64,000 nt of DNA from Candidatus Anderseniibacteriota bacterium (GTDB taxonomy: Bacteria > Patescibacteriota > JAUYIX01), in contig JAXLZN010000001.1 of NCBI GenBank assembly GCA_046350905.1, positions 1,220 through 65,219 of the forward strand, written 5' to 3'. Each line of letters starts with the position of its first letter. The first letter of the stretch is position 1. The position numbers and the translations under genes are program-made. A model generated the notes under the pieces. That model ran no database searches. It saw only the letters and a list, made by a program, of their open reading frames with translations, and was not told the DNA's origin. Below are positions 8,068 through 43,321 of the stretch, piece after piece.

Positions 8068-9276
8068 CTAGGCGATCTGCTTGTAGGCTTCGCGCTTGGC
8101 GAAGAACAGTGCGCCGTAGGTAGCCGGGATGAGCAGCAGGCTCGGGATCCAGCCGATGAACGGAATGAGGCCAACCAGCTGCAGCGCGGTCATGATGCCG
8201 ACGCTGACCCAGAAGAGCTTAGCCGTGCTCCAGTGCTGCTTGCTGCGGCGTTCGAGCCAGCGAGTCACCACGATGGCCGGGAGCGCCTTGGAGAGGAGCA
8301 GCGCCACCACGTACGCCACCATGAGCAGGCCGCCGAGCGGCAGGCCGACGACGGTCGCCATCAGCACGAGGGCGACGAGCGGCGTGCCGAAGAGGATCAG
8401 CAACCCGATGCCGAAGTCTTTCCAGAAGTTGGTCGCGAGGTGCTCAGCAGCACGCTGGAACGGACGGCGCAGCAGTAGTACCGCCGCCAAGATCACGAGC
8501 GCGTTCCAGATCAGGCTGAGCACAAAGGCACCGACGATGAACATGAGCAACCCGCGCGGGTTGGTTGCAGGACCGCTCGGCTGGAGTGATTGGTCAAAGG
8601 TGGCCTGGCCGGTGAGCCCGGGTCCAAAGTCGACGTGGCCACGCTGCGTAAAGTACCGGACCGCGCCCCCGAGCTTGAGGCCGGGGGTCACCCGCAGGTC
8701 GTCTGAGCCCAGCAAGGTAGCTGCGCCCTTGATGGTGCCGCCAACCACGAGCGTTCCAGCGTTGGCCAAGGCATCGCCGCTGATGGTCCCGGCGAACGTG
8801 ACGTCCCCGCTGTTGGCAAGCACCTTGCCGCGCACATCGCCGTCGAGCACGAGGACGCCGCTCGCAACCACGACGTCGCCGCTAATCGTAGTGCCCTCAG
8901 CAATGGTAATTGTTCCAGCAAGGGCCAGCACGTCGCCGTTGACGTTGCCGCTGATGGTAAGGTTGCCCGCCGTGGCACGAACATCGCCCGCCACCGCCGC
9001 GTTGATCGTGACGTTGCCGCCACCCACGAGCACATCGCCGCCCACGGGCGCATTGACGAGGATGGTACCGCCAGCAGCGACCAGGTCCTTATCGGTCGCA
9101 CCATCGACGATCACCTGGCCGCCGGCGACGTAGGCGTTGCCGGTCGTAGCCTGGACCGTGATGGTCTGGCCTGCCTGCAGGCGGGCGGCGTGGGCTGCTG
9201 GTGCCAGCAAGAGTGCTGGGAGCGCGAGGAGGCCGAGGAGGCCTGCACGCAGGTAGGGACGGGTGGTGTGTTGCAT
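8068..9276 (-). CDS. membrane protein with bactofilin-like beta-helical repeat ectodomain
   Basis: Signal peptide, then about 170 aa of GDV..G..V.I.G.V repeats (GGDVLVGGGNVTINAAVAGDVRATAGNLTISGNVNGDV..), then 4-5 TM helices. Confidence 0.6.
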   Translation of the reverse strand: MQHTTRPYLRAGLLGLLALPALLLAPAAHAARLQAGQTITVQATTGNAYVAGGQVIVDGATDKDLVAAGGTILVNAPVGGDVLVGGGNVTINAAVAGDVRATAGNLTISGNVNGDVLALAGTITIAEGTTISGDVVVASGVLVLDGDVRGKVLANSGDVTFAGTISGDALANAGTLVVGGTIKGAATLLGSDDLRVTPGLKLGGAVRYFTQRGHVDFGPGLTGQATFDQSLQPSGPATNPRGLLMFIVGAFVLSLIWNALVILAAVLLLRRPFQRAAEHLATNFWKDFGIGLLILFGTPLVALVLMATVVGLPLGGLLMVAYVVALLLSKALPAIVVTRWLERRSKQHWSTAKLFWVSVGIMTALQLVGLIPFIGWIPSLLLIPATYGALFFAKREAYKQIA

Positions 9277-9296: not shown

Positions 9297-10061
9297 CTAG
9301 CGGCCGAGCAACGTTCGTGCCTCGGGGCTGAGGAGGTCGTCGAGCGTGCCGTACGGGATGGTCACGCGCTGCGGCCCAGCCGCGTAGGGCCCAACCTGGT
9401 ACGGGTCAAAAAAGACCGTGAGGCCGTCGTTGTCGAGGAGCCATCGCTGAAAGATCTCGGCGGTGGGAGCAGCGCCCGTTGCAACATCAGGCAGGTCAGT
9501 GTTGCTCGAGAGCCGCGCGATCGCCTGCTCTGAGAGCCGCGCGAGGTAGGCGCTCCCCGGCTTGAACACGTCTGAGAGCGCGAGCAGTGAACCGTCCGCC
9601 ACCCGAAAGCTGTAGGCTAGCGTGGTGCTGTTGGGGTGCGCGGCACCCTGCTGGAATTCGTCGACGGTGAGCGCAATCGAGAGAACGCCGCCGACCGTGG
9701 TGGCGACGTACGTGGTGCTGAGGTCGCTGCCGAGGGTGGTCGACGGTTCGGCTTGCCGGGCATCCACGACAAAGTTGTCGACCAGTGCGTTGATGTCGAC
9801 CTGCAGCAGGGCGTTGATCTGGGTAGCTGCCGTCGCACTGCCGCCCGAGATCTTTGGGTAGCGAACATCAACGCTGAACATTGGAGCGTCGTTCGATCGT
9901 TGGATGCGCGCCTCTGCAACTGTGAACGCGGTAGGGTGCGTGCTCGGCTGACGGCTGATCGCCACAACGAGCGCTACCCCCGCGATGAGTACGCCGACCG
10001 AAGCGACGCTCAGCGCGAGCGGCAAGCAGAGCTTGGTGTGGCGGTTGCGGGTGGCTGGCAC
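9297..10061 (-). CDS. DUF3298/DUF4163 (RsiV/PdaC-like) membrane-anchored protein
   Basis: TM anchor LCLPLALSVASVGVLIAGVALVV. Also YPKISGG..AATQINALL, GAAHPNSTTLAYSF and VFFDPYQVGPYAAGPQRVTIPY. Start reset to GTG 10061, 10 nt after the upstream stop. Confidence 0.6.
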   Translation of the reverse strand: MPATRNRHTKLCLPLALSVASVGVLIAGVALVVAISRQPSTHPTAFTVAEARIQRSNDAPMFSVDVRYPKISGGSATAATQINALLQVDINALVDNFVVDARQAEPSTTLGSDLSTTYVATTVGGVLSIALTVDEFQQGAAHPNSTTLAYSFRVADGSLLALSDVFKPGSAYLARLSEQAIARLSSNTDLPDVATGAAPTAEIFQRWLLDNDGLTVFFDPYQVGPYAAGPQRVTIPYGTLDDLLSPEARTLLGR

Positions 10062-10071
10062 AGCCGACGCG

Positions 10072-12606
10072 CTAGATCGCGCCCAAGATTTGGTTAGCAA
10101 CCGCTGCGCTGATGGCGCTGCCGTCGCCGATGATCGTGGCGCTGCTGATGGTGGCAGCGTGCGCCTTGAGGTAGTTGAGGATCGGCGTGGGCAGCTTGTC
10201 GGGCATGGTGAGCAGGACCGGCACGCTCTGGTCAGCTGCAAGCGTGTTAGCGATCAGGGCGGAGTAGAGCTGGCCGACGGCGAGTGAGGCCGTGCTGTAG
10301 GAGGTGGCGCCGATAACGACCGAACCGGGGAGCCCCTGGTCGGTCCCGAGCGCCACGATTACCCCGGTTGGGTTGGGGAAAAAGGCTTGCGCCAGCAGCG
10401 CGTTGGTGCTGTAGCGGTCGGTACCGGCGTACCGTGTGGTGATGCGACCCGCGCTCGATCCAGCGATCTCTACTTCGATACCCAGCGGCAGCGCATCGAG
10501 TCCGCCAACGATTACAATGTGCGTAATAGCGGGGTTTCTGTTCAAGAAGTCGCGCACGTAGGGATCGAGCGCAGAGGAGGAGCGGTGGTTGAGCAGGATC
10601 GGCTCAACCTTGCCGTCGGCGTGCTGGCCAGCTACGGCACCGACGGCGAGGTCGTCTGCAAAGCGTAGATCTTCGGTCATGTAGACCGTGTCGGTGGGCG
10701 AACCGTTCTTCTTAATGATCTCGTCTCCGATCAACGACGCAGTCTGCCGGCGGTTAACACCAGCAAAGCGCGCTAGGTTGGTGAATCCGTGCTTCTTGAG
10801 CGTTTGTTCGACCGTGGAGCTGACCGCGCGGGTGCCGCCAATGATGTAGACCTGGGCGGTCGGGCTGGCGATGACGCGCTGCAGCTCCGTGAGCGTCGCT
10901 GCATCGAGCGTCGCGGTGTCAGTCAAGAGCAGCGAGGCGCTGGTGAGGTTGACGAGCGGACCGCTGGCGAGCGAGTCGACGAGGTTGTTCTTGCGGGCGA
11001 TCGCCACAGCCTGAGCAGTGCCGGGCGTCGGGAAGCGCTGCTTGCTGATCTCAATGGCTTGGCGCTCTGGCGTGATGCCGGGGATGCGCGTAACCGTCGG
11101 TGTCGCTCCGTCATCGTTGATGATGGTGTAGGTAAAGTCTGACTGCGTCACGCTGTCGCTGTTAGCGTCCCCGAGACCGAGCAGGCTCGAGGGGTTCTGC
11201 AGGGCGAGGTGGATCGTCTCATCAGGCTCGCTGGTGGCATCGTCGAGGATCGTGACGCCGCTGAAGGAGATGGCCGTACCCGCGGCACCGTTGTACGAAC
11301 CGGCTGGTACGGTTACCGCGATGGGCGAGCTCATGGTGTAGTCCTGGTTGGCGCCTGGCGTGGCGGTAGCTGCGTCGACATCAACCACGTTGATGGTCTG
11401 CGCGCTCGGCAGGTTGCCCTTGATCAGCAGCGTCGGGAGGGTGATCGGGCTGCTCTCGGGACCAGCAGCGGTGCCTGTAGAAAACTCAACCAGGGCATTG
11501 AACCAGCCGGTGGTGTTGCCGCTGTTGATCGAGTTTGCGGGGTTGATCGGCAGGGTGATACCGGACGAGCTGTCGGTCACGGCACCGTCGCGAATATCGA
11601 GGAAGTCACCGGTAAAAGTCGAGGCGCCCTGGAACGCAACCGTTGCGGCCGTGCCGGGCGTGCTCGAGACAATGTTGAGGCGGTCGTCGTCGTCGAGACC
11701 GTCGAGCGTCAGCGCGGTCGTGATCGTACTGGTCGTGCCAGCACCAAAGGTCAGCGTGCAGTCCGTACTGTTGTCGCTCGACTCAATTTTGGTGAGCGTG
11801 GCAAACGTGGCCGAACCCAGGATGCTCTGGTTGCAGCCGTCGAGCGTGACCGTGGAGGTTCCCGCCGTAAACGTACCGTCTACTGCATCGAAGTCGCCCG
11901 CCACCGAGATCGCGTTGGCTGCAGCGGTCAAGGTGCCGTTGATGTCGAGCGTGCCGTTCGCGTCGATGGGGTTGCCGGGAGCGTAGGTGCTGCTGGTGTT
12001 GACGAGCAGCTCGATGCCCGAGGCGGTGGTGAGGGTGCCGCCCGGCACGGTGTAGATGCTGGTGATGTCGTCGGCCGAGCCGCCTGGGTCGACGCCATTG
12101 GCGGTCGCCAGGTTGGCGTTGGTGGTTGGACCAGCATCCTCGTGGCGCACGATGAGGTGGTTCTGGTAGAGGTCGATGCCGGCCAACCCGCTGGCCGCGT
12201 TGTGGCGGGTTACCGTCACGCCGTTCTCCGTCTCGTCGTCGAGGTAGAGCGTGAGTACGGCACCCGAGGCCGGGGGCGCGGTGTTGGCGTAGATTGAGTA
12301 CGCGCCGCTCCCGTTGGTGTCGTTGGTGGCGCCTGAGTCAGCTCCGTTGATCAAGAGACGAACCGTCTTGCCCGACCCGATGTTAGTGGTGCCCTCGTCG
12401 GTGTAGACCGTCCCGTCGACCCGGATACCAAACCAGTTGAACGTATTGGTGCCCTGGATTGAGTTTCCCGGGTTGATTGGTACGGTCAGCGCGCTCGAGT
12501 TGTCGGTGACGTGGCTGTCGGTGATGTCGAGGAAGTCGCCGGTAAAGGTCGAGGCACCCGTAAAGTTGAAGGTCGATTCGGTGCCCGGTGTGCTCGCCAC
12601 GAGCAC
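10072..12606 (-). CDS. C-terminal part of giant surface protein: repeat module, Calx-beta-like domain, 3x CWB2
   Basis: 844-aa ORF. Calx-beta-like stretch: QTINVVDVDAATATPGANQDY..ISFSGVTILDDATSEPDETIHLAL..FTYTIINDDG. Three CWB2 repeats follow (AVAIARKNNLVDSLASGPLV.., FAGVNRRQTASLI.., YAGTDRYSTNALLA..). Confidence 0.8.
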   Translation of the reverse strand: MLVASTPGTESTFNFTGASTFTGDFLDITDSHVTDNSSALTVPINPGNSIQGTNTFNWFGIRVDGTVYTDEGTTNIGSGKTVRLLINGADSGATNDTNGSGAYSIYANTAPPASGAVLTLYLDDETENGVTVTRHNAASGLAGIDLYQNHLIVRHEDAGPTTNANLATANGVDPGGSADDITSIYTVPGGTLTTASGIELLVNTSSTYAPGNPIDANGTLDINGTLTAAANAISVAGDFDAVDGTFTAGTSTVTLDGCNQSILGSATFATLTKIESSDNSTDCTLTFGAGTTSTITTALTLDGLDDDDRLNIVSSTPGTAATVAFQGASTFTGDFLDIRDGAVTDSSSGITLPINPANSINSGNTTGWFNALVEFSTGTAAGPESSPITLPTLLIKGNLPSAQTINVVDVDAATATPGANQDYTMSSPIAVTVPAGSYNGAAGTAISFSGVTILDDATSEPDETIHLALQNPSSLLGLGDANSDSVTQSDFTYTIINDDGATPTVTRIPGITPERQAIEISKQRFPTPGTAQAVAIARKNNLVDSLASGPLVNLTSASLLLTDTATLDAATLTELQRVIASPTAQVYIIGGTRAVSSTVEQTLKKHGFTNLARFAGVNRRQTASLIGDEIIKKNGSPTDTVYMTEDLRFADDLAVGAVAGQHADGKVEPILLNHRSSSALDPYVRDFLNRNPAITHIVIVGGLDALPLGIEVEIAGSSAGRITTRYAGTDRYSTNALLAQAFFPNPTGVIVALGTDQGLPGSVVIGATSYSTASLAVGQLYSALIANTLAADQSVPVLLTMPDKLPTPILNYLKAHAATISSATIIGDGSAISAAVANQILGAI

Positions 12607-15600
12607 GGCGGTCGTTGGCGTCGAGGCCGTCGAGGTTCAGCGAGTTGCCAATCGTGATGGTGGTGCTCGACGGAAAAGGCGTGCGGCTAGTCGCGTTGTT
12701 GGTAGTGTCTTGCTTGACCAGGTTGTAGAACGTTTGCACGCCGGCGGTCGTGAGAGCCTGGTTCGTCCCGTCCAGCGTTACCGTTGATGTTCCGGCGTTG
12801 AACGAGCCGTTGATGGTAAGGTTACCGCCCACAAAGACGTTCAAGGCTCCTGCATCGAGCGAATCGACCACGTCGAGGTTCTGATCAACGTCTAACACAT
12901 TGGAGTTGGTGCTGAGCAGTCCGTTGGTGATCATGAGGTTTGCGACGTGGAGCCCGCTACCAAGGTTGTAGGTGTCTTGCGTGGGGGCCGTATCGTCAAT
13001 CGTCAACGTGACGTAGTCGGTTCCGCCAAAGTCCTGGATGGTGATCAGGTCGGACGAACCATCGTTGTTACCGACGTATTGCCAGACCCCGCTGCTGGTG
13101 TCTTGGGTCAGTGCGACGGTTTCGAGGCCGGTGCGGCGCAGGGTGCCGTTGTTAGTGAAGGTGCCGTTGGCGGTGAGGTTTTGACCGTCGAGCGAGAGCA
13201 CTGCATTGGCAGCGAGGGTTAGGTCGTTGGCGCCGATGTTGAGGTTGGTGTTGGTGAGCGTGACCGGGTTGGTGGTGTTGGTAATAGAGACGTCCGAGCC
13301 AATCGCCGCGTTGCCGGCGTCGCAGCTCTGCGCAACCGTGCCATCAAAGGTGAGCGTGCCGGTGTGCGTCAGGGTGCCGTCGTTGTCGAGGTTGCCGGCA
13401 ACGTTGATGGCGTTGGCGCCGGCCGAAAGTGTGCCGCTGCTTGCAATGTGTAGGCTGCCGTTGATGTCGACAGCGTTCGTGGAAGAGTTGAGCTACCGTT
13501 GACCCGCAAGGTTGCACTGCTCGTCGTGCTAAGTGTTCCCGCGGCTACGTCGTAGATGCTCGTAATATCGTTAGCGCTACCACCGGGTCAGCGTTGTTAG
13601 CGGTGTCGAGGTTGGCCGTTGTGATTGGTCCAGCAGCTCCTCGTTGCGTACGACTAAGAAGTTCTGGTAGATGTCGAGGCCGGCGAGGTTGATGCTGCCG
13701 TCGTGGCGTGTAACCACCACACCGTTCTGTCGTCGTCAAGGTAGAGGGTGCGATCGAACCGGGTACGGGCACGCCGTACGTCATCGAGTACGCGCCGCTC
13801 CCGTCTGTATGGTAACCCCGGTATCGGCTCCGTTGACCAGCAGCCGGACCGTCTTACCGGCGCCGATGTTCAGTTCCTCGACCGGTGTGAACCGTGCCGC
13901 TGAACATTGGCGTCACCCCAAACCAGCCAGTTGTGTTGCCGCCATCGGTCGAGTTGGCCGGGTTGATCGGCAGGGTGATGCCGGTTTCGTCGTCACCGTG
14001 CTGTCGGTGATATCGAGGTGGTCACCGGTAAAGGTGGACGAGCCCGTAAACGTGATGGTGTTAGCGCTGGTGGGCGTGCTCGAGACGATGTTGAGCCCGG
14101 TCGTTGGCGTCGAGTCCATCGAGCGTGAGCGCGGTGTTGATCGTGATCACCGTTGCGGCGGGCATGGTGAGCGTACGGTCAGTCGCGTCGTTGGTGGTGT
14201 CTTGCTTGATGAGCGTGTGGAACGTCTGCGGCCCGCTCACGATCGCCTGATCGAGGCCGTCGAGCGTGACCGACGAGGTGCCTGCCGTAAACGTGCCAGC
14301 AAGCTGAGGTCGCCACCGACGGCCACCGTCGAGGCGCCCAGGTTGAGCGAACCAGCCGCCGCTACCAGAGCCTTGGTCAACGTCGAGGCCCTGGCTGGTG
14401 GTAGCGAAGTCCGCTCGTAACCGTGAGCGTGGTGGCGTGCAGCGGGTTGCCCAAGCTGTAGGTGTCCTGGGTGCCGGCCGTGTCGTTGATGACGAGCGTG
14501 GCGTAGTCTGGGTCACCAGGCTCGCAGATGGTCGGGTCAGAGGAGCCGTCGTTGTTACCGATGTACTCCCCGGAGTCCCGCTGCTCGTGTCTTGGGTTAG
14601 GCTGATCGTCTCGAGACCAGTGCGGCGCAGGGTGCCGTTGTTGGCAAAGGTGCCGTTGGCAGTTACGTTGCGGCCGCCGGTGGCGAGGATCCAGCGCTGG
14701 CATTGATGGTCAGGTCGTTGGCGCCGATGTCGAGTGCGTTGTCGACGAGCGTCACCGGGTTGATGGTGTTGGCGATGACAGGTCTGAGCCGATCGCGCTA
14801 CCTCCCGCGTTGCAGGTTTGGGCAATCGTGCCATCGAGGGTCAGCGTGCCGGTGTGCGTCAGGGTGCCGTCGTTGTCGAGGTTACCGGCAACGTTGATGG
14901 CGTTGGCGCCGCTGCTGAGGATACCCAGAATGTGGAGGCTGCCGTTGACATCGACGGCACCGGTTGAGAGGGTCTTACCTGAGTTGACGCGCAGGGTCGA
15001 GGTCGCGGTGGAGGTGAGTGTGCCAGCCGCCACATCGTAGATGCTCGTGATGTCGTTGCCCGAACCACCTGGGTCAGCGTTGTTGGCGGTGTCGAGGTTG
15101 GCGGTGGTGAGCGGCCCGGCATCTTCGTGCTGTGCGACCAAGAAGTCTTGGTAGATGTCGAGGCTCGGCACCGCTACGCTGCCGTCGAAGCGCGTAACCG
15201 TTACGCCGTTCTCTGCTTCATCGTCGAGGTAGAGGGTCAGCACGGCACCGCTCGCAACGATGTCGTTGTAGGTGATGCTGTACTGGCCGCTGCCGTTGGT
15301 GTCGTTGGTGGAGCCTGAGTTCGCGCCGTTGATAAGCAAACGAACGGTTTTGCCCACGCCGATGTTGGTCACACCCTCGTCGGTGTAGACCGTACCGCTG
15401 ATAGTAAAGCCAAACCAGTTGCTCGTGTTGCCGCCGTTGATGGAGTTGGCGGGGTTGAGCGGAACGGTTACCCCCGATGAGTTGTCTGTCACAGCGCTGT
15501 CGGTGACGTCGAGGAACCCGGCAGTCGTAAACGTCGAGCTCCCGGTAAAGTTGAGCGTGCTCTGCGTGGTGGGCGTACTCGAGACGATGTTGACCCGGTC

Positions 15601-17250
15601 GTTGGCGTCGAGTCCGTCGAGCGTGAGCGAGTTGCCGATGTCGATCGTGACGCTGGCCGGCATCGTGAGTGTGCGGTCGGTGCTGTCGTTACTGGCGTCC
15701 GACTTGGCCAGGTCGTAGAAGGTGATCGGTCCGCTCGCCGCAATGGTTTGGTTGACCCCGTCGAGCGTCACCGACGACGTGTTGGCTGCGAACGTGCCGT
15801 TGAGCGTGAGGCCTCCGCCGACCGTCACCGTCGAGGCTCCCAGGGTGAGCGAACCTGCCGCCGCATCACTCAACGCGCCATCCACGTCGAGGGTCTGGCC
15901 GGTGGTATCGAGCGGCCCGCTCGTGATAGTCAAGGTCGTGACGTGGAGCGGGCTACCCAGGCTGTAAGCGTCTTGCGTGCCCGCGGTATCGTTGATGGCG
16001 AGCGTAAAGTAGTCGGTCCCGCCAAAGTCCTGAATCGTGATCGGGTCAGACGAGCCATCGTTGTTGCCGACGTACTGCCAGACACCACTGTTGGTATCCT
16101 GGCTGATGCTGATCGTCTCGAGACCAGTGCGGCGCAGGGTGCCGTCGTTGCTAAAAGTACCGTTAGCGGTAACGTTTTTGCCGCTCGTGACCAACGTGGC
16201 ATTGGTGCCGATGGTCAAGTCGTTGGCGCCGATGTTGAGGTCGTTGTCGATCAAGCTAACCGTGCTGGCGCTGTTGGTGACGGACACGTCAGAACCGATC
16301 GCGACCGTACCTTGGTTGACCGTTTGAGCACCGCTGCCGTCAAAGGTCAGGGTGCCGGTGTGCGTGAGCGTGCCGTCGTTGTCGAGGTTGCCCGCTACGC
16401 TGATCGCGTTGGCAGCGGCGTTGAGCGTACCGAGGATGTGGAGGCTGCCGTTGTCGTCGATGGCGTTGGTCGAGAGGGTCTTGCCAGCATTGATACGCAG
16501 TGTGCTGCCGCCCACAACGCTCAACGTACCGCCCGACACATCGTAGATGCTCGTGATGTCGTTGCCCGAACCACCTGGGTCAGCGTTGTTGGCGGTGTCG
16601 AGGTTGGCGGTGGTGAGCGGCCCGGCATCTTCGTGCTGTGCGACCAAGAAGTCTTGGTAGATGTCGGCAGCTACGGTCCCGACTCCGTTGTAGCGCGTGA
16701 CCGTTACGCCGTTTTCGGTCTGGTCGTCCAGGTAGACTGTTAGAACCGCGCCGTTGGCGATTGCCGTGCCGTAGTCGATGCTGAAAGCCCCACCACCGCT
16801 CGTACTACCAGTTGCTCCCGTATCCACCCCATCGACAAGCAAACGTACCGTGCGACCAGCCCCCATGGTCGTAACACCCTCGTCGGTGTAGGCAGTTCCG
16901 CTAACGGCTGCACCAAACCAACCGACGTTGTTGCCACTGTCGATAGAGTTAGCTGGGACGAGCGGGAGCGCAACCCCGGAGGAATTGTCCGTTACGGTAC
17001 TATCCGAGACATCGAGGTAGTCACCCGTAAAGGTCGAGGAGCCCTTAAAATCGATCGAACTCGTGGCACCGGGAGTGCCCGAGACGATGTTGATGCGATC
17101 ATCGTTGTCTAAGCCATCCAGGGTCAGGGAGCTTGCGATCGTAACGGTCGCACTTGCCGTCATGCTTATTGTGGTATCCGTCGCGTCGTTGGTTGTTTCG
17201 GTCTTACTAAGGTTGTAGAACGTAACATCGCTCAAAATAATTTGAGTCAC
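11500..17250 (-). repeat. tandem coding repeat, period ~1.5 kb, about 4 copies
   Basis: The YTDEG-encoding landmark recurs near 16880, 15376, 13876 and 12394. Positions 15031-15160 are identical to 16537-16666 (130 nt, offset 1506). Confidence 0.7.
12383..14834 (-). pseudogene. central repeat copies of the giant gene, multiply frameshifted
   Basis: ORF fragments 12383..13201, 13545..13784, 13913..14119, 14061..14834 and 14377..14703 each encode pieces of the same module (NVTANGTF.NNGTLRRTGLET.., TLDGLDANDR.., DIYQ..) in different frames. Confidence 0.5.
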
Positions 17251-19119
17251 TCCGGATCCATCCAGAACAACCGTTCCATTGTTGTGGGTAAAGGTTGTGC
17301 CGCTGTTGTTGTTAAAGTTGAGGGCAACCGTCATGGTGCCGCTGGGGGCAGTAAAAGAGGCGGCTGTGTTGAGGCCAAACGAGTTGTTGACGTCAAAGGT
17401 GCTGTAGGCGCCAAAATTTTGCGTACCGCCGCTCTGGGTGTAGTTACCGTTGGTAATCAAGCCGCCAAACCCAGAAAGCACGCCAGTGCTGTCAAGCGCA
17501 AAGTGGGCAACGTTTCCTGAAGCGCCCACGGTGAGCGTGCCTGTACCGGACAAGGTGCCGTCCAGCGTGATTTGACCGCCCGTACCAGAGCCGATAGTCG
17601 GGTTGTTGCCGAGTGGGAAGGTGCAGGCGCTGCCGATAGTCTTGTTGCCGCTGGTGTGAGTGAACGTAACCAGGTTAAAGGTCGCGCTGTTGCAGCTGAG
17701 GCTGGCACCGCTCGCACCGTTAAAATTCAGCGTGCCCCCGTTGTGTACAAAGGTGCCACTAAAATTGATGGTGAAGGCACCTGCCACAGACATAGTCCCC
17801 GAAGGTGCGGTGAAGGTCCCTGCGGAGAGGGTAAAGAGGCTCGCTACCGTCATGGGGCTGTAGGCACCGAAGTTAGCAGTCGCCCCTGCCACAATTAACG
17901 AGTTCGCCGCCAGACCACCAAAACCTGAGAGGCTCGAGCCTGTGTTCATGGTAAACGTGCCGCCCGAGAAGGTCAGCGTGCCCGTACCAGAGAGCGTACC
18001 GTTAAGCGTTAAGCTGCCGCCACCACTGGAGCCAACAGTTGGGTTACTGCCCAACGGTAGGCTGCAGTCGCTGTTGACGGTCGCAGTGTTGGCAGTATGC
18101 GTAAACGTAACGAGGTTGAAGGTCGCACTGTTACACGCCAGTGCTGACGAAGTCGTCATCGTGAAGGTAAGCGTGCCCCCGTTGGCCGTAAAAGTGCCGC
18201 CGCTGATCGTCATAGCCTTGGCGATCGTCATAGTCCCCGAGGGAGCGGTAAAGGTTCCCGAGGAGAGTGTAAAGTTGTTGTTAATCGTCACCGGGCTGTA
18301 GGTGCCAAAGTTTGCGGTAGCCCCCGCAACAGTTAGTGTGCCGAAGTCCGTAAAACCACTAAAACCAGACAGGCTTGAGCCGGCGTTGAGCGTGAGGGTG
18401 TTGGCGGTACCGGACGAACCGAGCGAGAGGGTCCCGCTGCCAGAGAGCGTCCCGTTGAGGGTGATCAATCCACCGGTGGCTGTGGTCGGATTGCTACCTA
18501 AAGGAAAGCTACAGTCGCTGTTGATCGTCCGTGTACCACTCGAATGGTTAATCGTCACGGCATTAAAGCTCACGTTGTTGCAAGCGAGAGTTGCGCTACC
18601 TGTGCTTGCAATGTTGACCGTGCCGCTGTTGTGCGTAAACGTCCCACCGGTGATGGTGATGGTGCTGTTGAGGCTCATGGTGCCGGAGGGCGCCGTGAAA
18701 GTCCCCGAGGCCAAGGTGAAGGTGCCACTCACCGTCATGGGGCTGTAGCTGCCAAAGTTTGCGGTAGCACCTTGAATGTTGAGACCACTTCCACTAAACC
18801 CGCTGAACCCGGACAAGCTGGAGCCGGCGTTGAGACGCAACGTGCCGCCAGATGCAGTGAGCGTCCCACTACCTGAGAGCGTGCCGTTGAGGGTGATGCT
18901 TCCGCCGCCGCCAGACCCGATCGTGGGGGTGCTGCCAAGTGGGAAGCTACAGTCGCTCGAGACTGTTTTGGTACCACCCGTGTGGGTAAAAGTTACCAAG
19001 TTGAACGTCTTGCTATTGCAGGTTAAGGTTGGGCTAGCAAGACCGTTAAAGGTGACCGTTCCGCTGTTATGTGTAAACGTGACACCTGCGCCGAGCGTAA
19101 AGGTGCTCGAGACGGTCAA
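14752..19119 (-). CDS. N-terminal/central part of giant surface protein (1455-aa intact ORF)
   Basis: The first ~640 aa are ~146-aa Gly/Thr/Ser-rich repeats (LNAGSSLSGF..ATANFG.YSP..GTFTAPSGTM..GGTFTHNSGT..CN..FN.VTF.HT). Two full ~500-aa modules follow (..LTLDGLD.NDR.NIVS.TPG..STFTGD.LD..DS.VTDNSSG.., SGT.YTDEGVT..G.G.TVRLL..). Confidence 0.8.
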   Translation of the reverse strand: MTVSSTFTLGAGVTFTHNSGTVTFNGLASPTLTCNSKTFNLVTFTHTGGTKTVSSDCSFPLGSTPTIGSGGGGSITLNGTLSGSGTLTASGGTLRLNAGSSLSGFSGFSGSGLNIQGATANFGSYSPMTVSGTFTLASGTFTAPSGTMSLNSTITITGGTFTHNSGTVNIASTGSATLACNNVSFNAVTINHSSGTRTINSDCSFPLGSNPTTATGGLITLNGTLSGSGTLSLGSSGTANTLTLNAGSSLSGFSGFTDFGTLTVAGATANFGTYSPVTINNNFTLSSGTFTAPSGTMTIAKAMTISGGTFTANGGTLTFTMTTSSALACNSATFNLVTFTHTANTATVNSDCSLPLGSNPTVGSSGGGSLTLNGTLSGTGTLTFSGGTFTMNTGSSLSGFGGLAANSLIVAGATANFGAYSPMTVASLFTLSAGTFTAPSGTMSVAGAFTINFSGTFVHNGGTLNFNGASGASLSCNSATFNLVTFTHTSGNKTIGSACTFPLGNNPTIGSGTGGQITLDGTLSGTGTLTVGASGNVAHFALDSTGVLSGFGGLITNGNYTQSGGTQNFGAYSTFDVNNSFGLNTAASFTAPSGTMTVALNFNNNSGTTFTHNNGTVVLDGSGVTQIILSDVTFYNLSKTETTNDATDTTISMTASATVTIASSLTLDGLDNDDRINIVSGTPGATSSIDFKGSSTFTGDYLDVSDSTVTDNSSGVALPLVPANSIDSGNNVGWFGAAVSGTAYTDEGVTTMGAGRTVRLLVDGVDTGATGSTSGGGAFSIDYGTAIANGAVLTVYLDDQTENGVTVTRYNGVGTVAADIYQDFLVAQHEDAGPLTTANLDTANNADPGGSGNDITSIYDVSGGTLSVVGGSTLRINAGKTLSTNAIDDNGSLHILGTLNAAANAISVAGNLDNDGTLTHTGTLTFDGSGAQTVNQGTVAIGSDVSVTNSASTVSLIDNDLNIGANDLTIGTNATLVTSGKNVTANGTFSNDGTLRRTGLETISISQDTNSGVWQYVGNNDGSSDPITIQDFGGTDYFTLAINDTAGTQDAYSLGSPLHVTTLTITSGPLDTTGQTLDVDGALSDAAAGSLTLGASTVTVGGGLTLNGTFAANTSSVTLDGVNQTIAASGPITFYDLAKSDASNDSTDRTLTMPASVTIDIGNSLTLDGLDANDRVNIVSSTPTTQSTLNFTGSSTFTTAGFLDVTDSAVTDNSSGVTVPLNPANSINGGNTSNWFGFTISGTVYTDEGVTNIGVGKTVRLLINGANSGSTNDTNGSGQYSITYNDIVASGAVLTLYLDDEAENGVTVTRFDGSVAVPSLDIYQDFLVAQHEDAGPLTTANLDTANNADPGGSGNDITSIYDVAAGTLTSTATSTLRVNSGKTLSTGAVDVNGSLHILGILSSGANAINVAGNLDNDGTLTHTGTLTLDGTIAQTCNAGGSAIGSDLSSPTPSTR

Positions 19120-19120
19120 G
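17250..19120 (-). repeat. tandem coding repeat, period ~0.44 kb, 4-5 copies
   Basis: The landmark gccaaagtttgcggtagc and its variants recur near 18743, 18304, 17866 and 17410. The protein shows the matching ~146-aa repeat. Confidence 0.6.
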
Positions 19121-19629
19121 GTTGCAGGGGCCTTAAACGTGCCGCCTGTGTCAGCAGGAGAAGGTCCCCACTGTCGTTGAAGGTTTGGGCGTTGCCGTCA
19201 AACGTACCACCTGCTTGGCTGAAAGATGTCGTCGTCCCTACAGTTGCTTGCTGTGTGATCGTGCCGGTATAGCCGCTGCCGCCAGTGATGGAAAGAGTTG
19301 CTAAGCTGACAGCCACGTCGATGTTAGCGTTAGCAGTCGAGGTAGAATCGAAGGTGGCGGTATCTCCCACACCAGCGCCTCCTGGAATGTGGCCGGAGCA
19401 GCCCGACCGGTTACCGGCGGTGTTCCGGCTTGTTGTTGGCGCTACCGTTGGTCCAGGTGCAGCTCGCAGCAGGCAACCTGCAGCAGAGTTACGACTACGC
19501 CGACGATTACGAAGGCGGCAGCAAAGCCAGCGACAACCGGCACCAGCCGGCAGCAAGGCAGTCCTGTAGGCCTGCTACCTTTGTGGGAAGTCTCTCCGGA
19601 CATGCAATAAAAAGTGGGAGGTGCGCGCT

Positions 19630-20430: not shown

Positions 20431-21478
20431 CTAGCGCTGCGCAGCCATGCGGGCAAGGGCGCGAACCACATCGTAGGCGACCTGCCGTGGCTGACCCGAG
20501 ACCGGGTAGTGGTGCGGGAGGATTGTGGGCGGGCTGTTGACCTCGACCACGACCGGTCGCGCGGCACGCTGCGTGCGGCCGGCGATGTTTTCGGTGAGGA
20601 TGTCGACGCCCGCGATGGCCAAGCCGGCCGCACGCGCCGTTCGCTCCACCAGCTTTTTGATGTAGGGCGAGGTCTGGTCGGTCACGTCCTCACTCCAGGC
20701 GCCCATCGAGCCGTTGGCGTTGGACCGGACCTGCACGGCACGCCCGGCGGCGGGCACCGAGTCGAGCGTCAGCTTGGCCCGGTTGAGCATGCGCTGGAAC
20801 TCGCGGTCGACCTCGAACGGACCGAGCAGCCTGGTCTGGCGCCGCGCCCGGCGGTTGTGGTCCTCGATCAGGTCGCCGACGGTGGAGTGGCCGTCACCGA
20901 CGATGCGCGGGTGGTAGCGGCGTGCCACGGCCAGACATTTGCCGTTGAGCACAAAGCAGCGGTGGTCCAGCCCGGGGTGGTGCCGCTGCACGACAAAGCG
21001 CTTGTTGCGCGCCTTGCGACGGATGAACTCAAAGGCGTGCTCGTAGGCAGCGCGCAGCTCTTCGTCGGTCTGGATGTCAGCCGCTACGCCGCTCCCTGCG
21101 AACCCCGGTCGGGCTTGACGACCACCGCGCGCTTTGGAAAGCCGAGCTTGCGCGCCGCCACCCGAATCTCCTCCCAGCTGCGCGCCAGGTCTCCGGCACC
21201 GGGGCGCCCAAGTCCGAGAGCAGGATGTGCGCCAGCCACTTGTGCTCAAAGATCCAGTCGGTGGCGCGGTCGTTGAGCGGCAGGATCTCCTTGTGCACGT
21301 AGACCCGGTGCTGTCCCCGCCCAAAGGCCATCAGGCTCTCGTTGTAGTCGAGCACCTCGACCGGTACCCCCAGTCGCTTAGCCGCGAACAGCAGCACCTG
21401 GTTGGCGATGTAGAGCCGGGCGTTGGGACCCGTACGGTAGGGCGGCATCGGGATGGGGACCATGCTGCGGCGAGCCAT
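20431..21478 (-). pseudogene. ATP-grasp ligase (cyanophycin-synthetase N-domain / RimK-like), two frame breaks at 21085-21190
   Basis: ORFs 21077..21478 and 20431..21324 plus a third-frame bridge SWEEIRVAARKLGFPKRAVVVKPDRGSQGA. ATP-grasp motifs: VVKPDRGSQGAGV and SNANGSMGAWSEDVTDQTSP (CphA-like NxSxGG..DVTD..HP). Confidence 0.7.
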
Positions 21479-21479
21479 G

Positions 21480-23236
21480 CTAGGTCGCGCTACGTTCGCT
21501 ACGGAGCGCCAACAGAAAGGGCGGCGGCTCGCGGTGGCCGTGGCGGCGGAGGGTTGCAGCGAACGCCGGCGTGACCTTGCCGACCATCAGCTCGTTGAGG
21601 ACATCCAGAATCGTCTGGGCCACGGTGAGTTGCGGGATCGTAGCACGGCGCCGGGAGCGCACAAGCTGCCGGACGAGACGGCGGGCCACCTCGCGCGCTA
21701 GCCAGGCTTCGAGCCGCTTGATGCCGCGGTAGTAGGCAGCGTCCCGCAGGTTGACGTTGCGCGGCCGGCGGCGGCCGTCGGTCATGCGCACCAGCCGGCG
21801 GATCGTTTCGTAGAGTTCGTCGGCGGGCGGGCCGAACTGCGCGCACAGGTCGTAGATCTCCTGCCAGGAGTAGCGCGGCACGCGGCGCGCCCCGCCGCGT
21901 GCCGCGCGAGTCTGCATCGCCAGGTTGGCGGCGTAGTAGCCGAGGGCGTGGCTCTCGCGCCGGTGGTGCGACGCTCGGTCACGGCGAGGCGTTCGAGCAG
22001 CGAGGCGAGCCCCTCCTCGTAGTCGAGGCTGCCGCGCACACCCGTCGCCAGGATGGCAAAGGGTCCCCGCCGGCCGGCCTCGGCACGCAGGATGTGCGAG
22101 AGCTCGTGGAGGCCGAGGTCGAGGTAGCGGTCCTGCATCGAGAGCAGGGGCGGGTCGCCGGGGAGCTCGAGCAGGAGGACGCGGCGCTGCTCAGGCTGCA
22201 CGACGATCGAGGCGCTGGCGTAGGGCGACACGTCGACGCTCCACCCCACGCTGGCAGGCTGGTCGGGACGACGGAGGGGCAACCCCAGACGCTTGAGGTT
22301 GGCGCGAACGACGCGCGCGGCTTGGCTGGCGCGCAGGGTTTTGTGGAGCGGCCGCTGGGCGAGGTAGGGCACGTGCGCACCATCTGCAGCCCGAAAGACC
22401 GCCGCCAGCAGCCGCGCGCGGAGCCGCTCGGCCGCACCAGCAGGTGCTCGTGCGCTGAGTTCGTCGACGAGGTGGAGCGCGGCCGTCCCGTGCGTCGTGT
22501 GCGGCAGCCTGCGGAGGCGTTGCGCCGCTACGGCGTATACGCGCGCCGGCAGCAGCCGGCGCCAGCGGGCGAGGAGCTGGCGGCGCACCGCTGGTGTCAG
22601 TGGGAGGCTCGCCAGGACGCGACGCTGAAACGCCACGAGTTCGTCTTGGGCAGCGGCGGCAAACTCGAGCTCACCCTCGCCGGGGCCGTGGTAGAGCGCC
22701 CAGAGCTCGCGTCCAGCCGCGGGCGTGCCGCGGGCGAGGGCGACCCGCAGCTCGTGAGCGCCGGTCAGGTACTCCGCGAGTACGTACGGCGGGATGGTGC
22801 GGAGCTGCCCGCGGTGCTGGTCGCGATGGAGCTCCCTCGTACGCCGCTCGAGCATGGCGAGGCTGGTCCGCAAGGCGCGTCGGTCCAGCTGCAGGAGGTA
22901 GCGCGGTCGGCTGCGCCGGAGCAGCGCATCCGCCGTACCAGCCTCGAGCGCACGGCGCAGCCGACGCCCGTAGGGCACAGTAAAGTTGCTCGCCGGGAGC
23001 CAGGAGCTCGGGGTGGGCTGGTGCAGGTAGCCGTTGAGCCAGCGGTCGGGTTGCTCGGTTCGCCGCAGCGTCGCACGCGGGCTGCGCACAAAGGTGATGC
23101 GGCCGTGCAGGTACGCAAGACCTGCGCTCAGTACGCCTGCCACGTCAGGTGCTGCCACTGTTGACAGTAGCGTAGCACCCCGCGCGGGTGGGTGTGGTAG
23201 GATTTGGGCACTTACCCGGTAACCAAAGGGAATCAC
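21480..23236 (-). pseudogene. DUF1704 / MATCAP-like zinc metallopeptidase (QEGLA-motif family), one frame break near 21950
   Basis: HExxH in DLGLHELSHILRAE and EGLA in SLDYEEGLASLLERL. The C-terminal part continues in ORF 21480..21917 (..RVPRYSWQEIYDLCAQFG..). Its stop is 1 nt from the ATP-grasp start. Confidence 0.65.
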
Positions 23237-23239
23237 TAT

Positions 23240-24865
23240 ATGAGGCGTCTACGCCCTCTTTCGTTCCTGCTCGCCCTAGCGACTACGCTGTGGACGGGAG
23301 GTTTTTCGTACCTACAGTTCGCGCCTGTCGCGAACGCTGCCGCACCGGCAGATAGCAGCCTGCAGGTCCTCGGCTCGCCCGAGTCGCTGCTGCAAGCTGG
23401 TCCAGCTTTGACTGGCTCAGACCTGAAGAGCAACGGCCAGGCCTTCAAGGACGCGGTTGCTGCAGACCGCGCCAAGCTGCAGACCAAGAGCGTGCAGGGC
23501 TCATCGGTCAACGGCAAGGACGTGACCATGGCCCCGAGCATCAGCGAGAACACCATCGCGGTGCTCCCCGCAACTATGTCGGCTCTCGACAGCTGGGACG
23601 GCGTCACGGTCGAACGTAACGACGCGAGCGGTCGACGCTACGTGGCCTGGATTGATGGTCGCGATGCGGCTTCGGCTGGTCTGTCATCGATCTACTTCAG
23701 CCGCTCGACCGATAACGGCGCGACCTGGAGCAGCCCGGTCCGCGCGGACAACCCCGCCGGTGGTCCGGCCTACGTCTGGCTCGGCCTCAACCTGGTAGCT
23801 GACCAGCAGGGCCACCTCGTGTTGGTGTGGGATGACTACCGCACCCTCGGTACAGGCGGTGGCGTCGCGCAAGTCTTCTACAGCCGTTCGAGTGACGCGG
23901 GGCAAACCTGGACGACACCGACGGCCCTGACGACGGATAGCCGCGTCTCGGTCTTCGCGCCGTACATCAACGGTACGATGGACAGCGACGGCAACACCAA
24001 CATTTTCTGGAGCGACGTGCGCACAGGCACTGCATTTGGTCCGGTCCGCGTCTACAGCATCCACTCGGGCAACCGTGGGACGAGCTGGGACCTCAACCAG
24101 ATCATCGACGATTCGGCTGGTACCGGGGCCGACTTTGCGCAGCGTGCAGCCCTCGGTAAAAACGGTGAGGTCATGGTGGGCTGGGACAGCAACCGTGCGG
24201 GCGGCTCGGGTGAGGACTTCATCCTGGCACGTTCGACCAACGGTGGTACCTCGTTTGCCGCAGACGTCATGATCAACCAGTACGCTGCCGGAACGATCAA
24301 CCTCGACCGGCTGCACCTCTGCTCAGACAGCCACGGCCAGGTGCTGGCAGCCTGGATGGGCGACGACCCGTCAACCTCTGACCCCGGCACGATCTACACA
24401 CGCACCTCGGCAGATTTTGGTGCCACCTGGTCAGCAACCAGCCCTGTGCTTACGACGAACGCTGACTTGGTCGACCCGACGCCGGCCGCCTGTGCGTTTG
24501 GCAGCACCCACATGGCAGTGGGCTGGCAGGACAAGACCAACAACGCCCTCAACGTAGCCTCGAGCAACGACGGTGGCGCCAACTGGTCTATCCAGGGTGT
24601 CGAACGCGACGTTCCTCTTGGATGCTGCGACGCTGACGAATTCTTGCTCGGCGTCGACAACGCCGGTCGCGTGCTTGCTGTCTGGACCGACAGCCGCAAC
24701 GGCACCAACGACGTGTTCGTCAACTACTCACTGGATGGCGGTACGACCTGGCAGACGGCCGACTTTAAGGCCACCAACCAAGTTCCGTCTGGCTCGAGCA
24801 CGGTCGTCCTCGGCAACGCCAGTTTCTCTCTGGCCCAGGGCAACCCCGACGCTACCGGCGCCTGA
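23240..24865 (+). CDS. secreted BNR/Asp-box repeat beta-propeller protein
   Basis: Signal peptide MRRLRPLSFLLALATTLWTGG. Six or more Asp-boxes: SRSTDNGATWS, SRSSDAGQTWT, RSTNGGTSF, TSADFGATWS, SSNDGGANWS, YSLDGGTTWQ. An SD-like AAAGGGA precedes ATG 23240. Confidence 0.8.
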   Translation: MRRLRPLSFLLALATTLWTGGFSYLQFAPVANAAAPADSSLQVLGSPESLLQAGPALTGSDLKSNGQAFKDAVAADRAKLQTKSVQGSSVNGKDVTMAPSISENTIAVLPATMSALDSWDGVTVERNDASGRRYVAWIDGRDAASAGLSSIYFSRSTDNGATWSSPVRADNPAGGPAYVWLGLNLVADQQGHLVLVWDDYRTLGTGGGVAQVFYSRSSDAGQTWTTPTALTTDSRVSVFAPYINGTMDSDGNTNIFWSDVRTGTAFGPVRVYSIHSGNRGTSWDLNQIIDDSAGTGADFAQRAALGKNGEVMVGWDSNRAGGSGEDFILARSTNGGTSFAADVMINQYAAGTINLDRLHLCSDSHGQVLAAWMGDDPSTSDPGTIYTRTSADFGATWSATSPVLTTNADLVDPTPAACAFGSTHMAVGWQDKTNNALNVASSNDGGANWSIQGVERDVPLGCCDADEFLLGVDNAGRVLAVWTDSRNGTNDVFVNYSLDGGTTWQTADFKATNQVPSGSSTVVLGNASFSLAQGNPDATGA

Positions 24866-24986: not shown

Positions 24987-25916
24987 GTGGCAGTCGCGCA
25001 GAACCAGTTCCCGACCGCAGGAACGGTCTCGGGGGCGGTCTTTGCCACCGGTGAGAACTTCCCAGACGGCCTCTCCTCGACCTCGCTCGCCGCGATGGTC
25101 AACGGACCGGTCTTCTTGGTTAAGCACAACTCGCTGCCCTCAGAGGTTGCAGCGGAGTTCCTGCGTGAGTACGACAAGAAGACGGACGCCGGCACCGACG
25201 CCTACGTGGTCGGTGGTACCTCCGCGGTCAGTACGAGCGTCGAGAACGCCATTAAGGCGCTCGACCCCTCGATCAACCTCAAGCGTCTCTCTGGCAGCAA
25301 CCGCAAGAAGACCGCAGTGGCGGTTGCCAAGGAAGAGGACGTGCTGCGCGGCTCGACCCCCAAGCAGGCCATCATGGCCAACGCGGGTGGCTTTGCGGAC
25401 GCCCTGACCGGTGGTGCCATTGCCGGCAACACCGGCATCCAGAACGACCTGATGCCGGTCCTCTTGACCGACACGGGCTCGCTCGACCCTGACACCAAGG
25501 CCTACCTGTCCTCGATCGCCAGTACGCTGACCCAGCTCCACATCATCGGTGGTACCTCAGCAGTCTCGTCTGCGACGGCGACTGCCGCTGACGCAGTGGT
25601 TGCAACGGTGGTCCGCCACGCTGGTGGCAACCGCTACAGCACGGCGACGCAGGCAGCTTCGGACTTCTTCAAGGGCAGCTTGGCGCCGCAGAAGTTCGGC
25701 CTAGCGAGCGGGACCAACTTCCCCGACTCGCTGACCGGTGGCCTGTGGGCAGCCCTGCACCTCTCGCCGCTGCTCCTCAGCGACCCGAGCACCTTGAGCA
25801 GCGAGACCTCGACGTACCTCACCGCTAACGCCGGCACGATTGATAGCGGCGCAGCCTTCGGTGGGACGTCAGCGCTCAAGCAAGCAGTCCTCGACGCAGC
25901 CTCTGCGCTCTACTAG
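24987..25916 (+). CDS. triple CWB2 (cell wall binding repeat 2) domain protein; probably the C-terminus of the BNR protein
   Basis: Three repeats with GENFPDGLSSTSLAAMVNGPVFLV, GGFADALTGGAIAG..MPVLLT and GTNFPDSLTGGLWAALHLSPLLLS. There is no signal peptide of its own. See the finding on the 24860-24975 frame breaks. Confidence 0.75.
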   Translation: MAVAQNQFPTAGTVSGAVFATGENFPDGLSSTSLAAMVNGPVFLVKHNSLPSEVAAEFLREYDKKTDAGTDAYVVGGTSAVSTSVENAIKALDPSINLKRLSGSNRKKTAVAVAKEEDVLRGSTPKQAIMANAGGFADALTGGAIAGNTGIQNDLMPVLLTDTGSLDPDTKAYLSSIASTLTQLHIIGGTSAVSSATATAADAVVATVVRHAGGNRYSTATQAASDFFKGSLAPQKFGLASGTNFPDSLTGGLWAALHLSPLLLSDPSTLSSETSTYLTANAGTIDSGAAFGGTSALKQAVLDAASALY

Positions 25917-33577: not shown

Positions 33578-35538
<1,961 letters not shown>

Positions 35539-36571: not shown

Positions 36572-37642
36572 TCACCAAAAAGACCAGCGTGTCGGGCTCA
36601 AAGGATCCGTTGACCTCGGCCGCGCTGCGGCACTGACCGCAGCCGTGCCGCCGTACAAAAACCCGTCGTTGATCGGGCCCGGATTGGCTTCTAGGTAGGC
36701 ACGAACGCTGTCCGGCACGCGCGCGTCGAGCAGGAGCAGCGGAGCGTCGTGGGCAGCCGCGTGCGCGCTCCCGGCCAGGGCGTCGGCAAAGGTGCGCCCA
36801 CTCGCAAACGTTACGGTGCAGGGCGTCGCTCCGACCAGTCCGTTGGCGATGGCTACGCTGGTTGCGTAGCGGTCAGCACCCGCCCAGCGTTTGAGGTTGC
36901 CGGTGGGTACAAATCCCGCCAGCTGGCTCGCCACGCGGCTGCTCACCGCTGCGGTACCACCCGCCAGGTTGATGCGCTGCACCGATCGGTGCTGCTCGAG
37001 GTAGGTCTGGGGTGGCGTGGTGAGGGCGGCGTGCTGCACGAGCAGCAGCGGGTAGCGGTCGTGGGCAGCCGGGGCCGAGAGCGCCAGTGCATCAGCAAAC
37101 ACCTCGCCGCTCGCAATGCCGACGGTGGTGGGCTGCCCAAAGCGTGCTGCCACGGCTGCAGCCGTCATGTAGCGATCGTCGCCGCTGAGCCGCACCACGC
37201 TGTACCCATCGCTGCCGACGGTAGCTGCCACCGCCGCGGAGAGCGCCTGCTCACCGCCGAGCAGGTACACCTTTTTGCCGCTCGGCAGCACCCGCTGCAC
37301 CTCGCTGCGCGTCACCGAATTGAGCGAACCCGTCTCGGTCAGCAGCAGCGGTCCCGCGACCAAGCGGCTGAGCGGCCCGCCGACCAGCCCGTCGGCAAAG
37401 CCGTTGCGGCGCGCGATGACCACAGCGCCGGCGCTGCCATCAGCAAACGCAGCCGCACTGATGGCCACCGCGGTAGCCACACGGTCATTGCCGGCGAGCC
37501 GCACGAGCTGCCCCGGGTTGGTCGAGGTACCGGTGCACGCAGCGGATGCGGCCGAGGTTGGCAGTACTGCTGCGCAGACACCGCCGAGCACCGCAACGGC
37601 GAGGGCGCCGTGCAGTACCGAGCTACGTGCTACGCGGACCAC
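36572..37642 (-). CDS. secreted triple CWB2 domain protein (probable N-terminal half of the phosphoesterase)
   Basis: Signal peptide, then AGNDRVATAVAIS..NGFADGLVGGPLSRLVAGPLLLT, SGDDRYMTAAAVA..VFADALALSAPAA..PLLLV and AGADRYATSVAIA..TFADALAGSAHAAAHDAPLLLL. Confidence 0.75.
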   Translation of the reverse strand: MVRVARSSVLHGALAVAVLGGVCAAVLPTSAASAACTGTSTNPGQLVRLAGNDRVATAVAISAAAFADGSAGAVVIARRNGFADGLVGGPLSRLVAGPLLLTETGSLNSVTRSEVQRVLPSGKKVYLLGGEQALSAAVAATVGSDGYSVVRLSGDDRYMTAAAVAARFGQPTTVGIASGEVFADALALSAPAAHDRYPLLLVQHAALTTPPQTYLEQHRSVQRINLAGGTAAVSSRVASQLAGFVPTGNLKRWAGADRYATSVAIANGLVGATPCTVTFASGRTFADALAGSAHAAAHDAPLLLLDARVPDSVRAYLEANPGPINDGFLYGGTAAVSAAARPRSTDPLSPTRWSFW

Positions 37643-43276: not shown

Positions 43277-43321
43277 TTACTGATCGCACCCACGTTTGGT
43301 CGACCAATCAGTCTGCCTTTG

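Follow-up and report, generated by a model that had tools for sequence, protein, structure and literature searches.

A giant CWB2-anchored surface-protein gene of nested repeats, with a reading frame probably broken by consensus errors of its contig

Here we describe a giant surface-protein gene in a stretch of 64,000 nucleotides (nt) of contig JAXLZN010000001.1, part of the assembly GCA_046350905.1 of a Candidatus Anderseniibacteriota bacterium; this whole stretch is called the window below, and positions count from its first letter. The gene fills positions 10072 to 19603 of the minus strand as a single gene-sized unit and, once its frame is corrected, comes to ~3,176 codons. It most likely encodes one Sec-exported, fibre-like surface protein anchored by CWB2 repeats, in which the frame is broken by insertion and deletion (indel) errors in the consensus of the contig and not in the gene. 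A preliminary description, made from the letters of the DNA, had called the locus a ~9.5-kb CWB2-anchored giant surface gene built from nested repeats; open reading frames (ORFs), repeats and domain matches all confirm this, and the picture of one such gene with two nested repeat families and a Calx-beta domain is right.

Two large ORFs, of 1455 amino acids (aa; 14752-19119) and 844 aa (10072-12606), lie in the same frame of the minus strand, just as had been described, and the 2.2 kb between them hold only short ORFs in all three frames. When its frame is corrected, this intervening stretch gives full-length modules with 66-71% aa identity to the intact module A and no stop codon (modules are lettered A to D in the direction of translation; see Table 1). 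The broken pieces start in the middle of modules—a putative signal sequence is confined to the first of them, and the anchor to the last—and the module alignment is continuous through every boundary between them. In two homologous loci (L003 and L004), a single unbroken ORF with many module copies extends across all of the sequence that was fetched, at >7,879 and >7,433 aa. We take the locus to be one gene on account of the shared frame of the two ORFs, the stop-free corrected modules, the pieces that start mid-module and these giant uninterrupted homologues.

The gene contains ~19 frame shifts, 15 of them inside 13484-14780. A frameshift-aware alignment to module A places seven in the second half of module B (14780, 14691, 14572, 14406, 14375, 14298 and 14096) and nine in module C (13989, 13871, 13809, 13750, 13730, 13635, 13582, 13484 and 12607). 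A homology-free Viterbi model of codon usage, used in place of a plot of third-position G+C that proved too noisy, switches frame at 14778, 14691, 14578, 14413, 14100 and 13993, within a few nt of six of the alignment shifts, and also at 12611; it calls most of 13491-13878 non-coding, and so neither confirms nor contradicts the shifts there. Since this model gives false positives in intact ORFs (e.g., 39797-41161), only switches backed by homology were counted. The clustering is strong by either statistic applied (P<1e-4), with 15 of the ~19 shifts crowded into 1.3 kb and none in stretches of 4.4 kb and 2.5 kb elsewhere in the gene.

At the N-terminus, continuity of motifs alone places two to three further shifts (~19430-19480 and ~19150-19165) between the hydrophobic segment of 22 residues that follows ATG 19603 and the body of the protein: the putative signal anchor, the "GDTATFD…" lead-in and the first ~146-aa unit are in different frames. 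The codon-usage model calls the lead-in non-coding, which makes the support weaker there. In part of it (19380-19440, minus strand), the motif S-R-N-T-A-G-N-R-S-G has two Arg codons (CGG) where Trp (TGG) is usual in related beta-helix proteins; either substitution errors or true differences could explain this. The preliminary description had placed the shifts in internal copies 3-4 and at the N-terminus. Both sites do show shifts in the deposited sequence, with weaker support at the N-terminus; the internal damage, however, affects copy 2 in its second half, copy 3 in its first third and the junction of C and D, and copy 4 is truncated with its frame intact.

The same kind of damage is found in other genes of the window. 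In uvrC (60560-62370, at ~60.5-62.4 kb on the plus strand), matches to Pfam alternate between two frames with continuous profile coordinates and at least five shifts: GIY-YIG positions 2-40 and the UVR motif lie in different frames; PF22920 changes frame between positions 2-84 and 83-111; and PF08459 appears as positions 8-74, then 75-114, then the remainder. Stops in the same frame are found at 60580-60582 and 61510-61512. The uvrA gene (55155-58128, minus strand) is split into an N-terminal ORF (56059-58128, 689 aa, with UvrA_inter and UvrA_DNA-bind) and a C-terminal ORF (55155-56183, 342 aa, with the ABC signature), which are in different frames and overlap by ~125 nt. Directly upstream of the giant gene, ATP-grasp_5 positions 15-107 become contiguous only after three frames are stitched together (20431-21480, minus strand). 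The protein with an HExxH…EEGLA motif that precedes this ATP-grasp domain changes frame at ~21960 and ~21480, as judged by eye and with no family match; the two regions (20431-23236, minus strand) spread over three frames with at least four shifts, at ~21960, 21480, 21190 and 21090, and are possibly one gene of ~930 aa. A first Pfam screen for split genes, based on overlapping ORF pairs, returned none; the split genes showed in later three-frame Pfam scans.

A BNR/sialidase-like ORF with a signal peptide (23204-24865, plus strand) is followed by a triple-CWB2 ORF without one (24987-25916); the only start codon of the latter truncates its first CWB2 repeat, and the coding signal continues upstream in the BNR frame. 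The two ORFs probably represent a single CWB2-anchored gene, interrupted by TGA codons at ~24863 and ~24875 and by a shift at ~24966. Intact genes in the window include those for TypA (1529-3364), DnaG, RpoD, GroEL (33578-35215) and a third CWB2 protein (36572-37642). Overall, the window has patches of ~0.1-1.6 kb with about 3-12 frame-shifting indels per kb, and clean sequence between them.

It is because unrelated housekeeping genes, uvrC and uvrA, are broken in the same way as the surface-protein gene that we attribute the frame breaks to the contig. The breaks would be small insertion or deletion errors of the deposited consensus, gathered in patches of roughly 0.1-1.6 kb that strike whichever genes they fall on. 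Such patches may come from an error-prone long-read consensus that escaped polishing, or from very low coverage.

Several points weigh against this explanation. The artefact is deduced from the contig sequence, and the collections searched hold no independent assembly of the organism (an exact-protein look-up also gave no match). The shift sites are not in long homopolymers, the classic context of nanopore errors, nor at short repeats, and some of the apparent gaps relative to paralogous copies are 4 nt long. Typing indels against paralogues is unreliable at 70% DNA identity, where comparisons of clean copies with each other also give 11-16 gaps. That uvrA and uvrC are struck together can also be read as a real loss of nucleotide excision repair. 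That no stop codons occur is weak evidence, given that the probability of finding none is 0.05-0.3 under 75-150 random substitutions. Finally, the function of the protein is deduced from its domains only.

The main alternative is real pseudogenisation, in which the giant gene, uvrA, uvrC and others would be truly inactivated and the indels biological; the preliminary description had listed real decay among its explanations. The loss of a coherent pathway, shift sites outside homopolymers and the frequent loss of surface-protein genes would all fit. The ratio of nonsynonymous to synonymous differences per site (pN/pS; Nei-Gojobori, on frame-corrected codons) is 0.41 in the shifted half of B and 0.34 in the shifted part of C, compared to 0.36, 0.42 and 0.44 for intact comparisons. 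A three-taxon decomposition over the same module positions gives the shifted part of B an own-branch pN of 0.097 (0.100 for A and 0.143 for clean C), and the shifted part of C one of 0.112-0.118 (~0.12 for A and 0.149 for D). Relaxed selection or longer branches were thus seen by neither measure on the shifted segments of B and C, so the damaged stretches are without an excess of amino-acid changes, and their 405 corrected codons contain 0 stops. The lesions themselves are small, leave the Pfam profile coordinates continuous and are tightly clustered. In bacterial mutation spectra, substitutions outnumber indels several-fold; hence, 15 genuine indels in 1.3 kb should be accompanied by tens to more than a hundred random substitutions. 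Decay is disfavoured by the unrelaxed constraint, and we consider it unlikely.

A variant that keeps the indels real would have a very recent, indel-only burst of mutation knock out the giant gene, uvrA and uvrC before substitutions could accumulate. If true, this would be an unusual and rapid mode of gene loss in a symbiont with a reduced genome; we regard it as decidedly unlikely. Two other biological mechanisms were dropped: a diversity-generating retroelement would give A-to-N substitutions and not indels, and 19 sites are too many for programmed frameshifting.

The repeats of the gene bear on the question of whether assembly went wrong because of them. Tandem Repeats Finder missed both repeat families, whose period is >500 nt or whose copies are too diverged; a search for direct repeats and a MAFFT alignment were used instead. 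The large repeat recurs every 1.5 kb: its copies start 1486, 1499 and 1500 nt apart, and a shortened one has a spacing of 930 nt—the period that had been described is real, and its "about 4 copies" of a ~500-aa module are three full modules and a truncated one, module D, which is supported by four repeat families (D4 and D8-D10) and by the module alignment. The small repeat recurs every ~440 nt, its copies being 432-453 nt apart (direct repeats D5, D13 and D18); the four to five copies previously counted were borne out as four clear ~146-aa units (19143-18715, 18705-18268, 18258-17830 and 17820-17377) and a degenerate one (17358-16993). Each unit has a pair of Cys 23 residues apart, and the region of the units is rich in Thr (19%), Gly (15%) and Ser (14%).

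Modules A and B share a 130-nt tract that is exact, as had been noticed, and the identity extends 0 nt to either side, into surroundings at ~70-85%. Identity of this length is far beyond chance at a background of ~75%, which indicates an exchange of sequence between A and B. We interpret the tract as a gene-conversion-like patch; the exchange could be biological gene conversion or mis-polishing, that is, homogenisation by short-read polishing.

Repeat-driven misassembly as the sole cause would have reads mis-aligned between near-identical modules, possibly with a wrong copy number as well. The densest patch does lie inside the tandem modules and starts beside the high-identity tract of A and B, and an exact repeat of 130 nt can confuse graph assemblers. 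However, the modules are mutually only 70-80% identical in DNA, which does not fit the near-identical repeats of the preliminary description, and modules A, D and half of B are clean. Together with the two to three shifts in the unique N-terminus and the breaks in non-repetitive genes, this divergence argues that the damage was not caused by the repeats. The earlier suggestion of consensus errors from mis-aligned repeats therefore holds in its first part, which is the best supported explanation, and fails as to the repeats, given their divergence, the unique N-terminus and the damage to uvrC, uvrA, the ATP-grasp gene and the BNR and CWB2 pair; misassembly of the repeats as the only cause is very unlikely.

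Repeat-mediated phase or size variation of a surface antigen had also been proposed, with reversible frame switching or cassette exchange controlling expression. Tandem modules and a conversion-like tract show that recombination within the gene is possible, and the protein would be exposed on the surface, judging by its CWB2 anchor. No simple-sequence tract that might serve as a switch is present—Tandem Repeats Finder reports only a 21-nt repeat in 2.1 copies—and ~19 lesions are far more than a switch needs and cannot act as one, while cytoplasmic repair genes show identical damage. We find this reading highly implausible.

The public annotation amounts to a further reading, in which the locus would be at least six independent hypothetical proteins. 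The 1455-aa ORF is identical to NCBI protein MFO0702273.1, encoded on a contig of 140,528 bp, and five further coding sequences with consecutive accessions and locus tags lie between 8068-9276 and 14752-19119; from this numbering, the giant gene is split into at least six "hypothetical proteins" in the public record. We give this reading next to no credence, because the pieces begin mid-module without signal peptides of their own, the module alignment crosses every boundary and the homologues are single giant ORFs.

Table 1. Parts of the giant gene, in the order of translation, followed by the tract shared by modules A and B.
Feature	Position	Strand	Basis and remarks
Start codon ATG 19603 and N-terminal hydrophobic putative signal anchor (LVPVVAGFAAAFVIVGVVVTLL)	19475..19603	-	Own frame, stop at 19445; three-frame translation
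N-terminal lead-in (…NTAGN.SGCSGHIPGGAGVGDTATFDSTS…)	19151..19474	-	Second, possibly third frame; motif continuity across frames
Four tandem ~146-aa Gly/Thr/Ser-rich units	17377..19143	-	Frame intact; phmmer self-hits E 1e-37 to 1e-85
Degenerate fifth ~146-aa unit	16993..17358	-	phmmer E 3e-5; merges into first module-tail copy (TFYNLSK…LDGLDNDDRINIVS…), which matches positions 377-500 of the module hidden Markov model
Module A, 500 aa, intact	15526..17025	-	Disordered linker, ~90-aa beta-sandwich and ~340-aa beta-solenoid, predicted by AlphaFold2 and alignment
Module B, 71% aa identity to A	14027..15525	-	First half intact; second half (14096-14780) with 7 frame shifts
Module C, 66% aa identity to A	12541..14026	-	8 shifts in 13484-13989; 12608-13483 clean; one more at 12607, the C/D junction
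Module D, truncated, frame intact	~11500..12540	-	Internal deletion of ~190 aa; repeat spacing 930 nt vs 1500
Calx-beta domain, 141 aa	11077..11499	-	Profile and predicted fold; Pfam score below cut-off
Three tandem CWB2 repeats, the cell-wall anchor	10087..11016	-	PF04122 E 5.8e-26; stop codon 10072-10074
130-nt tract, module B	15031..15160		Exact copy of 16537-16666; covers the module's most conserved part (DIYQDFLVAQHEDAGPLTTANLDTANNADPGGSGNDITSIYDV)
130-nt tract, partner in module A	16537..16666		Exact copy of 15031-15160

The domains at the C-terminal end are the best characterized. The triple CWB2 anchor of the preliminary description stands, with three stretches matching PF04122 at 91 bits (cut-off 24.9). 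Over ~290 residues (residues 499-817) the block aligns with the solved structures of SlpA HMW subunits of Clostridioides difficile (PDB 7acx and 7acy) and of Cwp8 (5j6q) at E 1e-16 to 1e-18, and also with Cwp6. The protein is not an SlpA orthologue, as it reaches only 77 bits with the NCBIfam model of SlpA, for which the cut-off is 650. The Calx-beta-like domain that had been suggested is likewise borne out, despite a PF03160 score of 13.8 bits (E 0.059) that does not reach the gathering cut-off of 27. The segment has 36% identity to the tandem Calx-beta repeats of a homologue (P0015), and a profile built from the segment and these repeats matches the CBD1 domain of NCX1 at E 1.4e-8 over 118 positions. 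Its AlphaFold2 model has a predicted local distance difference test (pLDDT) value of 78, and the top 29 Foldseek matches of the model are all Calx-beta or CBD domains (E down to 1e-6, template modelling scores of 0.6-0.8).

The repeated parts, both the ~500-aa modules and the ~146-aa units, match no family in Pfam or NCBIfam. An AlphaFold2 model of module A, based on an alignment of 21 module instances, reaches a pLDDT of 89 and a predicted template modelling score of 0.85; in it, residues 39-130 form a beta-sandwich of ~90 residues, and a solenoid of short strands takes up the following ~340. Foldseek comparisons of this model with the PDB gave weak matches only (E >= 0.02), in which the sandwich resembles Ig-like, X-module and CnaB domains of adhesins and scaffoldins. 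The solenoid had no significant match to solved beta-helices in the PDB; the best hits, at E 0.02, were Ig-like domains only.

Taken together, these predictions suggest a protein that would start with an N-terminal anchor or signal and four to five ~146-aa beta-strand units, and continue into an extended stalk of three and a half modules of ~500 aa, in each of which a long beta-solenoid follows an Ig-like beta-sandwich. A Calx-beta domain would sit near the wall, and the C-terminal CWB2 repeats would hold the protein non-covalently on cell-wall polysaccharide, as in SlpA and the Cwp proteins of C. difficile. Patescibacteria are usually ascribed an episymbiotic lifestyle; this and the architecture make adhesion the most plausible function. 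By analogy, the protein would most likely attach to a host or substrate, or shape the surface architecture, of a wall-bearing and probably episymbiotic cell of the Patescibacteria type.

Some further observations concern the surroundings of the gene. Its downstream neighbour (9297-10241, minus strand) encodes a membrane-anchored DUF3298/PdaC-like protein; its longest ORF shares 170 nt with the 3' end of the giant gene, which makes a start further downstream probable. The third CWB2 protein of the window (36572-37642, minus strand) has 356 aa, its own signal peptide and three CWB2 repeats; along with the CWB2 ORF at 24987-25916, it suggests that CWB2 anchoring is in wide use in this organism. 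Between 58710 and 60128 (minus strand), three consecutive ORFs of ~190 aa without family matches lie in successive frames with overlaps of ~46 nt, and may be another frame-shifted gene.

Two observations apply to the window more broadly. About 13 kb (42400-55200) have 45-56% G+C inside a contig of 63-69% G+C; the genes here include several histidine kinases (two with HisKA_7TM), a partial aldehyde-dehydrogenase-like ORF, a PALP enzyme and an M20 peptidase, and the stretch may have arrived as an island by horizontal transfer, or may result from a chimeric join. Stop codons were checked in 20 genes of the window, and 14 of these end in TAG, which is unusual for a genome of 65% G+C; TGA ends five apparently complete genes and most of the broken pieces. 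Recoding of UGA was considered, given these TAG ends and the several broken pieces that end in TGA, and was rejected because the Pfam pieces truly alternate between frames.

The module belongs to a large family. In a profile search of 1.84 billion representatives, the module was detected in 6,922 proteins, of which 1,426 matched at E<=1e-30; among the best 142 representatives, the median length is 3,171 aa and the maximum 7,732 aa. The module occurs at full length and in tandem in four homologous proteins (P0003, P0005, P0002 and P0008) and three homologous loci (L001, L003 and L004). With the uninterrupted homologues described above, these lengths indicate that an intact giant ORF is the normal state of the family. 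Scans of genome and metagenome contigs found relatives only at 34-43% identity, and all neighbouring proteins were singleton clusters.

The "collapsing frames" of the locus are, then, most likely not a biological feature. This matters for the public record, where at least six unrelated "hypothetical proteins" and broken uvrA and uvrC genes would mislead counts of pseudogenes, repair capacity and surface proteins in this metagenome-assembled genome (MAG). A biological reading of broken frames in a repetitive gene should wait for a check of whether conserved single-copy genes of its contig carry the same lesions. The giant gene itself is a reasonable candidate for attachment to a host or substrate in a Patescibacteria-type cell, and is nothing mechanistically new.

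The gene can be compared to several known systems. Like SlpA and the Cwp proteins of C. difficile, it places a variable functional region on an invariant wall anchor of three C-terminal tandem CWB2 repeats; in contrast, its functional region is a beta-solenoid module array of ~2,650 aa that is not found in Cwp proteins, and its host is a MAG of 65% G+C labelled Candidatus Andersenbacteria and no Firmicute. Beta-helical fibre adhesins—autotransporter passengers, TpsA/FHA and PATR-repeat proteins—are alike in their long solenoid of short strands, here a predicted one, and in a composition rich in Gly, Thr, Ser and Asn, and one homologue of the gene (P0017) carries PF12951; however, the protein described here has no beta-barrel translocator or TPS domain and is anchored by CWB2. 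The giant proteins of Omnitrophota are very long, repetitive, extracellular and implicated in adhesion, with 30,000-85,000 aa and HEAT, TPR and dockerin domains (bioRxiv 10.1101/2023.11.21.568195); our gene is ten times smaller, has another set of domains and is compared with them in general character, not by sequence homology. The same work reports that long-read indels and local assembly errors fragment giant genes (West-Roberts et al. 2023, bioRxiv 10.1101/2023.11.21.568195). A final comparison is with giant proteins built of many beta-solenoid modules, an unnamed family of Patescibacteria, Omnitrophota and other uncultured phyla, which shares the tandem module and similar sizes; the gene here differs in having only ~3.5 modules and a CWB2 anchor, found in none of the best 142 representatives of the family. 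It is thus a CWB2-anchored addition, with an unusual anchor, to a very large and widespread module family that has neither a name nor a Pfam model.

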